From an uncultured Clostridia bacterium (GTDB taxonomy: Bacteria > Bacillota > Clostridia > TANB77 > CAG-508), in assembly GCA_947591045.1 (NCBI GenBank), contig CANQCV010000002.1, forward strand, positions 35,075 through 99,074: a stretch of 64,000 nt of DNA, written 5' to 3'. The notes beneath the pieces were generated by a model. That model was not told the origin of the DNA. It searched no databases and was given only the letters and a program-made list of their open reading frames with translations. The position numbers and the translations under genes were made by a program. This document shows positions 16,428 to 23,295 of this stretch, piece after piece; position 1 is the first letter of the stretch, and each line of letters starts with the position of its first letter.

Positions 16428-16450
16428 AACTTTCCTCCTTATTATATTAT

Positions 16451-16495
16451 GACTTGTCCCCAATGCGACAAAAATGGGAAAAAGGGTCAGGCCCC
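16451..16495. repeat. 45-bp dispersed repeat, copy 1 (mcsA-mcsB spacer)
   Basis: gacttgtccccaatgcgacaaaaatgggaaaaagggtcaggcccc; the reverse complement recurs at 23145..23189 with one mismatch. Confidence 0.9.
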
Positions 16496-16496
16496 A

Positions 16497-17081
16497 TTAC
16501 GACATTTTTGCTATTTGGTCTCTTATTTTTGCAGCATCTTCATATCTTTCTTCTTTTATTGCTTTTTGTAGTTCTTTTTTTAGTTTTTCTATTTCTGATT
16601 TATCTTTTTGCTCTGCTTTTTCTTGTTTTTCTGTAGTTTCCTTTTTGGTACCTTTTTTATTTTGAGAATCTTCAAATTGTTTTTTATTGTATTCTAACTC
16701 GTCTATTGAGTCTTTATATTCTCTTCCTATATGCTTACTAGAACCATGTAAATTTTTAAGTACAGGTGATATTCTATCTGCAAAAGTAATATAGCAATTA
16801 CCACAACCAAATTCTCCAGTATTTGCGAAATCATCAAATGTCATTCCGCATTTATTGCATTCTAACAAATTTGTTTTTGTAAAACTTGGTAAGAACCCTT
16901 CTGTATCATGAAAAAAGTCTGTAAAGAAACTAGAAAAGTTAATTGGCATATTAAAATCTATACTTTCTAGTCCCAACTCTCTTGCACATTTATCACAAAG
17001 TGCCATTTCTTTTTTTACTCCATTTATTATTTGTGTATATCTAAAATTAACCTCATTTTTTCCACAATTTTGACATAACAT
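16497..17081 (-). CDS. mcsA: McsA, activator of McsB (zinc-finger and UVR motif protein)
   Basis: 194 aa; CQNC..CDKC and CNKC..CGNC zinc fingers, C-terminal UVR-like LKKELQKAIKEERYEDAAKIRDQI. Confidence 0.85.
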   Translation of the reverse strand: MLCQNCGKNEVNFRYTQIINGVKKEMALCDKCARELGLESIDFNMPINFSSFFTDFFHDTEGFLPSFTKTNLLECNKCGMTFDDFANTGEFGCGNCYITFADRISPVLKNLHGSSKHIGREYKDSIDELEYNKKQFEDSQNKKGTKKETTEKQEKAEQKDKSEIEKLKKELQKAIKEERYEDAAKIRDQIAKMS

Positions 17082-17668: not shown

Positions 17669-17710
17669 AAAAAAAATTAGCAGAAAAGGGAACTGTACCC
17701 TCTCTGCCAA
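17669..17710 (-). terminator. terminator downstream of the pilin-like FGE gene (TGGCAGA-type stem with G-U pairs)
   Basis: Minus strand ttggcagagagggtacagttcccttttctgctaa followed by tttttttt. Confidence 0.5.
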
Positions 17711-17942
17711 AATATCACAAAAGTGACAAACCTATCTTTTGTTTTACACAAAATTTATTACACTCTTGCATTTTATGCTCATTTGTAACATAACTACAAT
17801 ATTATACAGGTTTCAATAACTCATGTCAACTTTATAATATAATCGTTATTACATTTTTCACACTTTATTACATTTAACAGAATGGAAACCGTCCTATTCT
17901 GATAAATTGTCACAAAAGTGGCAGAAATTTGTGGTATTTGTG

Positions 17943-19409
17943 TTACTTAACATAAAGCACGACACGGAACCCAAGGACGATGTTGGCGCCAGACACTGCA
18001 TCGTTGCCAGCGCGACAGGAAGCAGGAGTGCTGGTGCCGTTGTTGTTAAAGCTACCCCCACGATGAACCGCGTACTTCGTACCGGTTGTTGTAGTAGGTG
18101 AGCTTGTGCTATGGTAACCCGTCTCTGTTGTCCACTCCCACATATTTCCTGCCATATCATAGATATTTTTTAATTTAAATTGCTCTACTACTCCTGTTGA
18201 TAATTCTATATATTTTGATAATGTATGTGTTGTTGTGTTATAACTACTACCATTTGTATAATCTGCTGCAGTATATTTTAATCTTTCCTCTGCATCTGTT
18301 AAGTTTTCTGTTCCTAATTTTGGCTGTCCCTTTTTATATTTATTTGCTATTACCCAAACTGATGTGCCCGTTTGTTCACTTTTTACTGTTGCCAATACAT
18401 GCTGTACATACAAGACATCTTCTGTTAATTGTGTTGTATTATTGGTATAATTTCCATAATCTTTACTATCTGTTACTATTTTTTCTTTTCCTTCTTCACT
18501 TGCTATCCATTCTACTGTTCTATCCCATGCTATTCCATCTATTAACTGACTTGTTACATCATAGCTACTTTCTACTCCACTATACATATTTTTTGATACT
18601 TCTACCGCATTTGTTTGATTTATATAATTCCATGCTTGTACTCCCTGCTTACTTACTGGTTTTAAATCTTTGTCCCCTTCTTTAGTTACATTTTTCGATT
18701 TATTCCCATTTGTAGAATCAGCTGTTTGGTATTTATAATCATTTTCTTCATTTGCATAAAATGGTGCATCTTCTGGCACTCCTGCCTCAAATCTTGCTAC
18801 ATAAAAACCGCCATTTTCTTTCACGCTCTTTTTATTTGTTTCTATATCTGACTCTTCCTTCCAATCTGTATAGTTTCTGTAATAATATGTTTTCCATGGG
18901 TTAGTTCCTTCGTCTACTGTTGAGCTACCTGTATCATTTACATTTGGTTTATTATACTCGTGCTTTTTATACTGCCCCTCTGTGCATGGTACCCATACAA
19001 ATTGATTTCCGTCAGCATCTTCTATTACTATCCCGTCACTTACAGTTGTTCCACAGTCTGGTACTACTTTAAAGCCTTTTGGCACTGTTACTTCTTTTCC
19101 GTACTTATCTTCTGCCTTTACTGTTCTTTTTTGTATTTCTGTTAGTCCCTCTACTAATGGTTTTCCTGTTGGTCCTTGTGGTAATTTCCTTAATTCCATT
19201 AAATAGTCATATTCTTCTGCCATTGAATCTAAGCCCTCTTCTTCTCTTTTAGCGCTTTCTTCATATGCATCTCTTGCTTGCTCTGCTTTTTTTATTAAGC
19301 CATTTTTTCCTGCTACCATATTTATACTTACCGTTGCAAGTATTATTAAAACGATTATGGTTACAACTAACGCAATTAGTGTGATTCCTGTTTCTTTTTT
19401 TCTTATCAT
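17943..19409 (-). CDS. secreted or membrane-anchored protein with a prepilin-like N-terminus and a C-terminal FGE-sulfatase / C-type-lectin-fold domain
   Basis: 488 aa; N-terminus KETG-ITLIALVVTIIVLIILA resembles a class III (prepilin) signal but has Ala instead of Glu at +5; C-terminus GNMWEWT..HRGGSFNNN..CRAGN..GFRVVL is the FGE/CLec signature. Confidence 0.7.
   Translation of the reverse strand: MIRKKETGITLIALVVTIIVLIILATVSINMVAGKNGLIKKAEQARDAYEESAKREEEGLDSMAEEYDYLMELRKLPQGPTGKPLVEGLTEIQKRTVKAEDKYGKEVTVPKGFKVVPDCGTTVSDGIVIEDADGNQFVWVPCTEGQYKKHEYNKPNVNDTGSSTVDEGTNPWKTYYYRNYTDWKEESDIETNKKSVKENGGFYVARFEAGVPEDAPFYANEENDYKYQTADSTNGNKSKNVTKEGDKDLKPVSKQGVQAWNYINQTNAVEVSKNMYSGVESSYDVTSQLIDGIAWDRTVEWIASEEGKEKIVTDSKDYGNYTNNTTQLTEDVLYVQHVLATVKSEQTGTSVWVIANKYKKGQPKLGTENLTDAEERLKYTAADYTNGSSYNTTTHTLSKYIELSTGVVEQFKLKNIYDMAGNMWEWTTETGYHSTSSPTTTTGTKYAVHRGGSFNNNGTSTPASCRAGNDAVSGANIVLGFRVVLYVK
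17946..18135 (-). other. G+C-rich, codon-usage-atypical 3' segment of the FGE gene (DGR variable-region-like)
   Basis: Codons such as GGC, AAC, GTC, CGC, GCG, GGG and TTC are concentrated in the last ~60 codons, whereas the rest of the gene is A/T-ending; both strands are stop-free here (track shadow ORFs). Confidence 0.5.
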
Positions 19410-19700: not shown

Positions 19701-19732
<32 letters not shown>

Positions 19733-19777: not shown

Positions 19778-19860
19778 TCTGGCGACCGATGGTCGCCCCT
19801 ACATTTAATTTTGCTGTGTTCACCCCTACATTTAATTTTGCTGTGGTCGCTCCTACATTT
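19778..19860. repeat. one full GGCGACC hairpin repeat followed by two degenerate 27-bp tail copies (cccctacatttaattttgctgtg)
   Basis: tctggcgaccgatggtcgcccctacatttaattttgctgtg / ttcacccctacatttaattttgctgtg / gtcgctcctacattt. Confidence 0.85.
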
Positions 19861-23120: not shown

Positions 23121-23144
23121 TAGTTCTCCTTTTATCCCTTTAAA

Positions 23145-23189
23145 GGGGCCTGACCCTTTTTCCCATTTTTGTCGCATTGGGGACAGGTC
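23145..23189. repeat. 45-bp dispersed repeat, copy 2 (inverted; PBP 5' leader)
   Basis: ggggcctgaccctttttcccatttttgtcgcattggggacaggtc, the reverse complement of 16451..16495. Confidence 0.9.
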
Positions 23190-23295
23190 AGTTTTTATTT
23201 TATATATACATAATATACGAAGATAAAAGAAAAATCAATATAAATATAAAAATTAGATGATACTTTATAATACCATCTAATTTTTTATTTAATTT

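Follow-up and report, generated by a model that had tools for sequence, protein, structure and literature searches.

The window analysed here comprises 64,000 nucleotides (nt) of contig CANQCV010000002.1 from an uncultured Clostridia bacterium (NCBI GenBank assembly GCA_947591045.1). On its minus strand, the open reading frame (ORF) list gives a gene of 488 codons plus a TAA stop codon (17943..19409), the product of which begins with a membrane helix, continues as a long helical stalk and ends in an FGE-type C-type-lectin domain. We describe this gene as a candidate target of a diversity-generating retroelement (DGR), a system that rewrites a variable region (VR) from a template repeat (TR) by means of a reverse transcriptase (RT). 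The 3' end of the gene stands out by composition. Measured over 150 nt, its G+C content reaches 0.553 at 17950-18099 and 0.533 at 18000-18149, with values of 0.25-0.35 on both sides and 0.295 for the whole 64 kb. Bases 17950-18140 contain 55% G+C, and the top 190-nt value of all 64 kb (0.553) starts at 17950; the remaining G+C peaks of the window reach only 0.43-0.45 and lie within ordinary long ORFs. The best change-point of third-position G+C (GC3) in the gene falls at codon 422 (position 18143), with GC3 rising from 0.19 before to 0.56 after it. The codon-atypical, G+C-rich tail reported in the first-pass annotation, which was made from the letters alone, is thus confirmed, and the codons that it listed (GGC, AAC, GTC, CGC, GCG, GGG, TTC and CGT) are present there. 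It had also called the patch stop-free on both strands, in agreement with two further ORFs that span it, 17894..18160 on the minus strand and 17907..18101 on the plus strand.

Comparison with DGR cassettes of related bacteria delimits the VR within this tail. The VR, taken as the last 118 nt and last 39 codons of the gene (17953..18070, minus strand), is colinear with the TRs of two cassettes, L320 and L321. Against the L321 TR (3633-3750) it aligns without gaps over 118 nt and with 17 mismatches, of which 13 are located at TR adenines, one is a T/C difference between the initiation of mutagenic homing (IMH) sequence and its TR counterpart (IMH*), and three lie elsewhere (18064, 18022 and 17997). 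Adenines are therefore mismatched at 13/30 positions and non-adenines at 4/88 (Fisher p = 2e-6), with 17 TR adenines unchanged; against the L320 TR there are 19 mismatches, 14 of them at adenines. The 13 adenine substitutions (18031, 18028, 18016, 18011, 18010, 18002, 17993, 17990, 17989, 17987, 17978, 17977 and 17975) all affect codon position 1 or 2 of the TR codons AAC, AAT, ACT, ACC, TAT and ATT. They define an A-to-N substituted part of the VR at 17975..18031 (minus strand), in which codons 460, 461, 465, 467, 470, 473, 474, 475, 478 and 479 are changed, and they turn the TR-encoded ...GTNNPVSYRNGNNAVTNTNINIGFRVVL into the VR-encoded ...GTSTPASCRAGNDAVSGANIVLGFRVVL. The first-pass annotation had taken some 190 bp as the VR; the G+C-rich patch of that length is real, but its TR-templated part is only the 118 nt at 17953-18070.

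The substituted part is followed by an IMH-like invariant 3' end, TTGGGTTCCGTGTCGTGCTTTA (17953..17974, minus strand), of which the TR counterpart, IMH*, ends in ...GTGCTCTA. The IMH is intact in this copy, and the VR end GGGTTCCGTGTCGTGCTTTA matches that of every cassette-adjacent VR. Throughout the clade, every VR ends in ...GTGCTTTA and every TR in ...GTGCTCTA, giving a consistent T (VR) to C (TR) difference, and this IMH/IMH* arrangement is that of canonical DGRs (PMC5758913). The proposal of a DGR variable region on an FGE-type lectin is thus borne out by the TR match, the adenine-specific mismatches and the shared IMH.

Outside the adenines, the VR is remarkably close to the template. 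At non-adenine TR positions it is identical at 84/88 (95.5%), similar to the cassettes' own VRs (87/88 and 85/88), whereas the gene bodies of the window gene and the L320/L321 targets are merely 71-72% identical. A VR backbone so much better conserved than the gene body, synonymous sites included, would be expected if a conserved template overwrote the VR repeatedly; it speaks against an old fossil and also against a recombination patch of foreign origin. The GC3 of the VR (0.57) likewise resembles that of cassette-adjacent VRs (0.60-0.62). Among 21 close homologs, the mean entropy is 2.70 bits in columns of adenine-containing TR codons and 0.61 bits elsewhere (p = 9e-7), and in the C-termini of close relatives Gly, Phe, Pro and Arg scaffold positions are kept, with hypervariable residues between them. 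The TR has a G+C content of 49% and the window VR one of 58%. We attribute the G+C-rich, codon-atypical tail to overwriting of the segment from the 49% G+C TR, with adenine replacement raising the G+C content to 58%. The earlier view that adenine mutagenesis enriches the segment in G+C holds to this extent, but the excess itself is inherited from the TR.

Other templates and other copies behave differently. The TRs of L322 (NCBI GCA_947627405.1) and L323 (Logan), whose RTs are 80% identical to that of L321, were rejected as cognate, as the window VR departs from them at 36 and 34 positions without adenine bias; the L323 TR carries CAT at the codon of the window mismatch 18064. Because L322/L323-type TRs are so unlike this VR, several DGR lineages must coexist in these communities, and the window VR belongs to that of L320/L321. 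Two paralogs without RT in housekeeping contexts, L078 (P0009, beside a topoisomerase I gene) and L079 (P0003, between secA and a flavoprotein gene), were tried as products of the L320/L321 TR and gave no match, with non-adenine identities of 63/88 and 69/88, which is background level; the VR of L078 has a GC3 of 0.24.

The cassettes were recovered through homologs of the window protein. Its relatives number in the thousands, the closest being 60-79% identical, and a search of species-representative genomes returned 77 loci. Nearly all of these come from metagenome-assembled genomes (MAGs) of uncultured gut Clostridia in rabbit ('Lapin') and human samples; many paralogs per MAG are common, and many loci lie at contig ends. 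At several of them an ORF with DGR-type RT motifs (IGNLTSQ...YMDD) directly follows the homologous gene on the same strand, and a ~120-nt repeat directly past the RT matches the 3' end of the target gene. The VR/TR pairs of these relatives differ almost exclusively at TR adenines (11/12, 15/17, 20/21, 11/12 and 21/22 mismatches). Two homologs, P0017 and P0015 (63% and 62% identical to the window protein), were traced to the ENA rabbit-gut contigs L320 and L321, on which the cassette runs in the order target, bAvd (PF22296), RT (PF00078), TR and an 82-codon ORF. The cassette bAvd matches NCBIfam NF033474 (DivGenRetAVD) with an E-value of 2.7e-17 and 63 bits, under the 80-bit cut-off.

Several further traits of the related loci were noted. 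The ORF of 82-83 codons after the TR is conserved (L320 3263-3511, L321 3952-4200, L322 2193-2444), and a search for a family match to it found none; past it lie a MutS_I fragment and a helix-turn-helix gene, and in L320 also a sortase gene. L071 carries two tandem TRs (1747-1867 and 2055-2172), distinguished from each other by 9 substitutions and a 3-nt indel. Of these, the first suits the adjacent VR and the second that of L040, on another contig of the same MAG; L040 is a clean remote target, with 9/11 mismatches to the second L071 TR at adenines. At L038, L046 and L049, three to five paralogs sharing the N-terminal motif stand in tandem; some of them terminate in ...SFRPALY instead of GFRVVLY, an indication of sub-families with different C-termini.

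The earlier report of no RT, TR copy or Avd in the 64 kb was upheld by three re-checks of the window, namely a repeat search, an adenine-tolerant sliding comparison with an RT-motif scan, and tblastn with the related bAvd and RT, none of which found a TR copy, RT or Avd gene. Avd is accordingly known from the related cassettes only. The near-repeat differing mainly at A positions that the first-pass annotation had proposed to look for does exist: it is the TR, found on related contigs and on contigs from the same samples, not on the window's contig. Run look-ups place the window sequence in rabbit gut metagenomes, which were available as assembled Logan contigs rather than raw reads, such that paralogs and alleles are not separable. 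Sample contigs were aligned to the VR at 80% likeness in four samples (S1-S4) from two studies. In each sample there is a contig whose differences from the VR are exactly the 12-13 that the L320/L321 TR would give, and in all four samples containing this genome these contigs run into the flank that follows the TR in L320/L321 (CTAATATAATTCGAGATT[T/G]TGTATTTTACG). The depths of TR contig and window flank are also similar, being 6.4 and 6.05 versus 5.85 in S1, 7.5 versus 7.7-15.2 in S2, 6.0 versus 2.9-6.9 in S3 and 3.4 versus 3.3-3.5 in S4. Co-occurrence and co-abundance are good circumstantial evidence, as distinct from physical linkage, that TR and window belong to one genome, and we infer that the cassette resides in the genome of the window gene. 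The family also appears to be multi-copy in this genome, given that P0002 (78% identical) and P0005 (70% identical) are recorded on a contig of 113,390 nt, the length of the window's own.

The gene body is poorly covered by sample contigs at >=93% likeness, the contigs being fragmented, and both VR edges are break points of unitigs. Contig word depth in runs X1-X4 rises to 90-150x and 300-1,490x at the VR edges (17947-17970 and 18115-18177), with 4-30x inside. The VR edges are common to many paralogs and species of the community, and the assemblies break there.

The protein itself suits a DGR target. A Pfam FGE-sulfatase match covers residues 384-484 (17958..18260, minus strand; E-value 8.6e-10; profile positions 143-254 of 255), which corresponds to the C-terminal half of the lectin fold and bears the VR. 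The AlphaFold2 model, built with 84 homologs, has a mean pLDDT of 90.9 and a pTM of 0.84, and comprises a membrane helix (residues 9-33), a long helix (residues 38-74) and a large globular domain. Structural similarity search revealed that the best PDB matches are two DGR variable proteins, TaqVP (5vf4, E-value 2.3e-5) and TvpA (2y3c, E-value 1.9e-4), followed by weaker matches to PvdO, OvoA, Mtd (1yu4, E-value 2.2e-3) and FGE. TM-scores are low (0.3-0.46) because of insertions, and sequence matches to solved FGE-family proteins are marginal (E-value 0.07-0.8), only the fold being shared. The FGE-type C-type-lectin assignment of the first-pass annotation is therefore supported by both the Pfam match and the fold model. 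DGR variable proteins such as Mtd and TvpA use the lectin fold for binding. The predicted gene product is a surface protein with a membrane helix, a stalk and a lectin domain.

The N-terminus, MIRKKETG|ITLIALVVTIIVLIILATVSINMVA (19311..19409, minus strand), consists of a basic leader ending in Gly and a hydrophobic helix, with Ala at +5. In type IV pilins and pseudopilins, some 20 hydrophobic residues come after a short basic leader with a terminal Gly, and tip subunits such as the pseudopilin GspK lack Glu5. The N-terminus here has the same class III signal peptide layout (basic leader, Gly, ~20 hydrophobic residues), and GITLIAL resembles the GFTLIEL of pilins, but Ala replaces the defining +5 Glu. 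The motif GIT[LV][IV]AL is found at the N-terminus of 85/86 family copies examined, and the +5 residue is Ala or Ser in 86/86, never Glu. Membership of the type IV prepilins or pseudopilins is not supported, since the signature G|[FM]TL[IL]E fails (G|ITLIA, no Glu at +5) and Pfam N_methyl scores 10.9 bits against a cut-off of 21.2 bits; no NCBIfam match was found at an E-value of 0.1. Of the earlier description of a prepilin-like start with Ala at +5, the Ala stands and GITLIAL proves strikingly conserved, but the prepilin signature does not hold. Neither prepilin peptidase nor pilus genes were noticed in the window, in which no systematic domain scan was made. We treat the N-terminus as a putative signal anchor, with pilin-like processing as a speculative alternative. 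In several paralogs from different MAGs (L009, L013, L015, L016, L019 and L022), the N-terminus reads GITLIALVITIIVLLILARS... and the frame is then lost directly past the membrane helix; tblastn nonetheless aligns the near-full query to L009, L016, L019 and L022. This frame loss may reflect a recurrent frameshift site or an assembly artefact.

Taken together, we consider it likely that the gene is a remote target of a chromosomal DGR whose cassette lies outside the 64-kb window. That cassette, consisting of a paralogous target, bAvd, RT and a 118-nt TR, would sit elsewhere in the genome. Following the established DGR pathway, the TR would be transcribed, the RT with Avd would make a cDNA with misincorporation opposite adenines, and the cDNA would replace the VR, beginning at the IMH at its 3' end. 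The AAC, AAT and ACN codons on the ligand-binding face would thereby be rewritten, with the Gly, Phe, Pro and Arg scaffold codons fixed. Such a segment would be overwritten repeatedly from a 49% G+C template rather than drifting with the 29.5% G+C genome. The first-pass annotation had left three options, a remote target, a fossil VR and a recombination patch. The remote target fits best.

Several observations weigh against a remote target that is still served by this DGR. The link between VR and cassette rests on co-occurrence and similar depth rather than on a shared contig, and among the best 120 matches of RT homologs none was recorded on a 113,390-nt contig. The non-adenine differences at 18022 and 17997 persist against the TR of all four samples, and, as they differ from every sample's TR, are real VR-specific changes. 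The bases past the stop codon also differ. In all 13 cassette-adjacent VRs (L004-L075, L320-L323), TAGCACTG(N4)C.G.TA occurs directly at the stop codon. The AGCAC of TAGCACTG could pair with its reverse complement GTGCT inside the IMH, a partner that the TR is without. In the window, the stop codon and post-stop bases TAACACAAATACCACA (17930..17945, minus strand) form a degenerate remnant of TAGCACTG: the post-stop sequence is TAACACAAAT, the change of TAG to TAA removes one pair of the putative stem, and no similarity remains beyond CAC, ~13 nt past the VR. The motif is therefore degenerate here, yet it follows all the cassette-adjacent VRs and that of L040, the one clean remote target with a known TR in its MAG, and in related MAGs paralogs without it differ from their own MAG's TR at 6-27 non-adenine positions. 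Copies without TAGCACTG could thus cease to be targeted; the motif may be either a recognition element or a mere passenger of recent duplications. Weak AT-rich hairpins lie further downstream of the window VR, and an inverted repeat downstream of the IMH is present in only about a third of DGRs (PMC5758913).

A further point on the same side is a GC3-rich extension of 73 nt, M-WEWTTETGYHSTSSPTTTTGTKY (18071..18143, minus strand), which lies in the G+C-rich patch upstream of the VR and for which the DGR model does not account, as none of the TRs seen templates it. Between the WEW codons and the VR (69 nt), its GC3 is 0.52, compared to 0.39-0.43 in four close homologs and 0.14-0.19 in gene bodies. 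A scan for TR ends yielded 15 genuine TRs, among which no longer TR covering the extension was found; all 15 begin ~10 nt upstream of the CGTGG core and ~20 nt past the RT stop codon. The amino-acid variability of the extension is ordinary, with a mean entropy of 0.88 compared to 0.84 for the body. Possible origins are an ancestral longer TR, G+C-biased repair at the 5' cDNA junction, or gene conversion between paralogs.

The rival that survives best, though we regard it as unlikely, is a fossil VR, namely a duplicate of a cassette-adjacent target that kept its VR but received no further cDNA and was recently frozen. It would explain the degenerate TAGCACTG and the end of homology to cassette-adjacent copies just past the VR, as well as the two to three non-adenine mismatches to the TR, and many paralogs in related MAGs look similarly decayed, with the mismatch counts given above and a VR GC3 falling as low as that of L078. 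However, cassette-adjacent VRs themselves carry 1-3 non-adenine mismatches, and the window VR combines an intact IMH with a non-adenine identity, synonymous sites included, far above that of the gene body and a GC3 unlike that of L078. Any freezing would therefore have been very recent. The current activity of this VR is the weakest point of the remote-target interpretation: the IMH, the 95.5% identity and the GC3 of 0.57 would favour very recent or current rewriting, and we infer that homing into this copy may still continue.

Highly improbable is a recombination or gene-conversion patch derived, without reverse transcription, from a higher-G+C homolog or horizontally acquired DNA, as had been suggested earlier. 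The abrupt composition boundary agrees with it, and a non-DGR process may act on the GC3-rich stretch of 73 nt upstream that no TR covers. The 3' 118 nt, however, are colinear with a TR that adjoins an RT and differ from it chiefly on adenines, which effectively excludes this origin for the VR; their 3' boundary is the IMH common to all VR/TR pairs, and no higher-G+C donor homolog was seen, the relatives being all low-G+C Clostridia with the same local G+C peak. Least credible of all is a conserved family feature in which the G+C-rich ending reflects residue and codon needs of the lectin scaffold without any retroelement at this locus or in this genome. All close homologs do share this ending, a finding that the first-pass annotation had named as counting against a DGR, but the common ending is accounted for by shared TR templating in homologs that adjoin RT and TR, a VR without TR match loses the GC3 excess (L078), and the hypervariable columns coincide with adenine-containing TR codons.

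A remote DGR target of this kind has parallels in known systems. In Treponema denticola, a single cassette is believed to act on an adjacent target as well as on several remote paralogs of it (Wu et al. 2018, PMC5758913); this bacterium is thought to have seven remote DGR targets, and such targets are found in DGR lineages without phage association (PMC5758913). As here, the Treponema denticola DGR is cellular and not evidently phage-borne, and its targets are surface-anchored with a C-terminal FGE-type lectin VR (PMC5758913). Its protein TvpA is among the best fold matches of the window protein, with an identity of ~10% over the fold alignment; however, TvpA is a lipoprotein, whereas the window protein is anchored by a pilin-like signal-anchor helix that is joined by a long stalk of helical structure. 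Another difference is that many paralogs in the MAGs related to the window fail to match their MAG's TR, and remote targeting is proposed here from sequence comparison. Structurally, the closest match (probability 1.00) is the Thermus aquaticus TaqVP, a C-type-lectin-fold variable protein of a DGR, but with TM-scores of 0.33 and 0.41 and an identity of 10%, the window protein having large insertions, a membrane helix and a stalk. The combination of an N-terminal transmembrane helix or signal peptide with a C-terminal lectin VR is shared with membrane-anchored lectin targets of cellular DGRs (Roux et al. 2021, PMC8144416).

The DGR of Bordetella phage BPP-1 (Mtd, Avd, TR and Brt) shares with the present system a VR at the 3' end of the target, adenine-specific differences from the TR, a one-base difference between IMH and IMH*, Avd, and an RT with an IGxxxSQ motif. 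They differ in that the order here is target, Avd, RT and TR, with the TR ~20 nt past the RT stop codon, and that the setting is chromosomal rather than a phage tail-fibre gene. In addition, a G+C-rich inverted repeat situated entirely downstream of the IMH is absent here, and its place may be taken by a putative pairing of the post-stop AGCAC with GTGCT inside the IMH. The dispersed paralogs beside ctsR-clpC, secA and topoisomerase I genes fit a cellular, chromosomal DGR with scattered targets.

The target gene is flanked by ctsR-mcsA-mcsB-clpC on one side, and by rsmA and a penicillin-binding protein (PBP) gene on the other. A ~48-nt element, TGAC[T/C]TGTCCCCAATGCGACAAAAATGGGAAAAAGGGTCAGGCCCC, is present twice in inverted orientation (16450-16499 and 23141-23190), the arms being 96% complementary with an exact 38-nt core, for which the chance expectation is none. 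One copy is located at the mcsA/mcsB junction and the other directly ahead of the position at which the PBP (SpoVD-like) gene probably starts, and the pair encloses 6.6 kb including the target gene. In the stretch that separates the target gene from the ctsR promoter (17658 to 17631), the minus strand contains a perfect sigma-70-type promoter (TTGACA-17-TATAAT, 17829 to 17801), followed ~90 nt past it by a strong intrinsic terminator (13-bp stem and T-run, 17710-17677). This unit (17677-17829) may be a small RNA or leader; it has no match in Rfam, which reports only two tRNAs in the window. The palindrome-containing word CACTTTTGTGA occurs twice on the minus strand, ~200 nt apart, once directly past the target-gene stop codon (c. 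17912-17922) and once directly ahead of the terminator hairpin (c. 17718-17728). Upstream, the target gene is preceded by 540 nt of intergenic DNA with a (CT)14 microsatellite (19701-19728) and a 27-nt tandem repeat of 2.6 copies (19790-19860), which could bring about slipped-strand changes in the expression of the target gene.

A more speculative extension, which we think improbable, is that the whole dispersed GITLIAL family represents subunits of an unrecognised pilus-like fibre with a signal lacking Glu5, the lectin tips of which are rewritten by one chromosomal DGR. At least three copies appear to be present in this genome, and 9 or more loci in related MAGs, some of them in tandem arrays. 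If true, hypervariable adhesin tips encoded beside housekeeping operons across the genome would form a repertoire governed by a single retroelement, and whether a copy stays writable would depend on a short post-stop hairpin (GTGCT/AGCAC).

Remote DGR targets are a kind already known, and the finding leaves knowledge of the DGR mechanism unchanged. In full-text literature searches, neither this Clostridia family nor its N-terminal motif was found described. Metagenome surveys require the VR to lie beside the RT and thus miss copies like this one (PMC8144416), of which the window gene provides a worked example. In low-G+C genomes, remote VRs can be flagged by a local peak of G+C and GC3 at the 3' end of FGE-fold genes, and cassettes next to paralogs, together with same-sample contigs, can yield the cognate TR. 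The series of copies from cassette-adjacent through clean remote to decayed paralogs could reveal what keeps a remote VR targetable, for which TAGCACTG is the candidate. For gut ecology, the finding adds a large family of hypervariable surface lectins in the uncultured Clostridia of rabbit and human guts.

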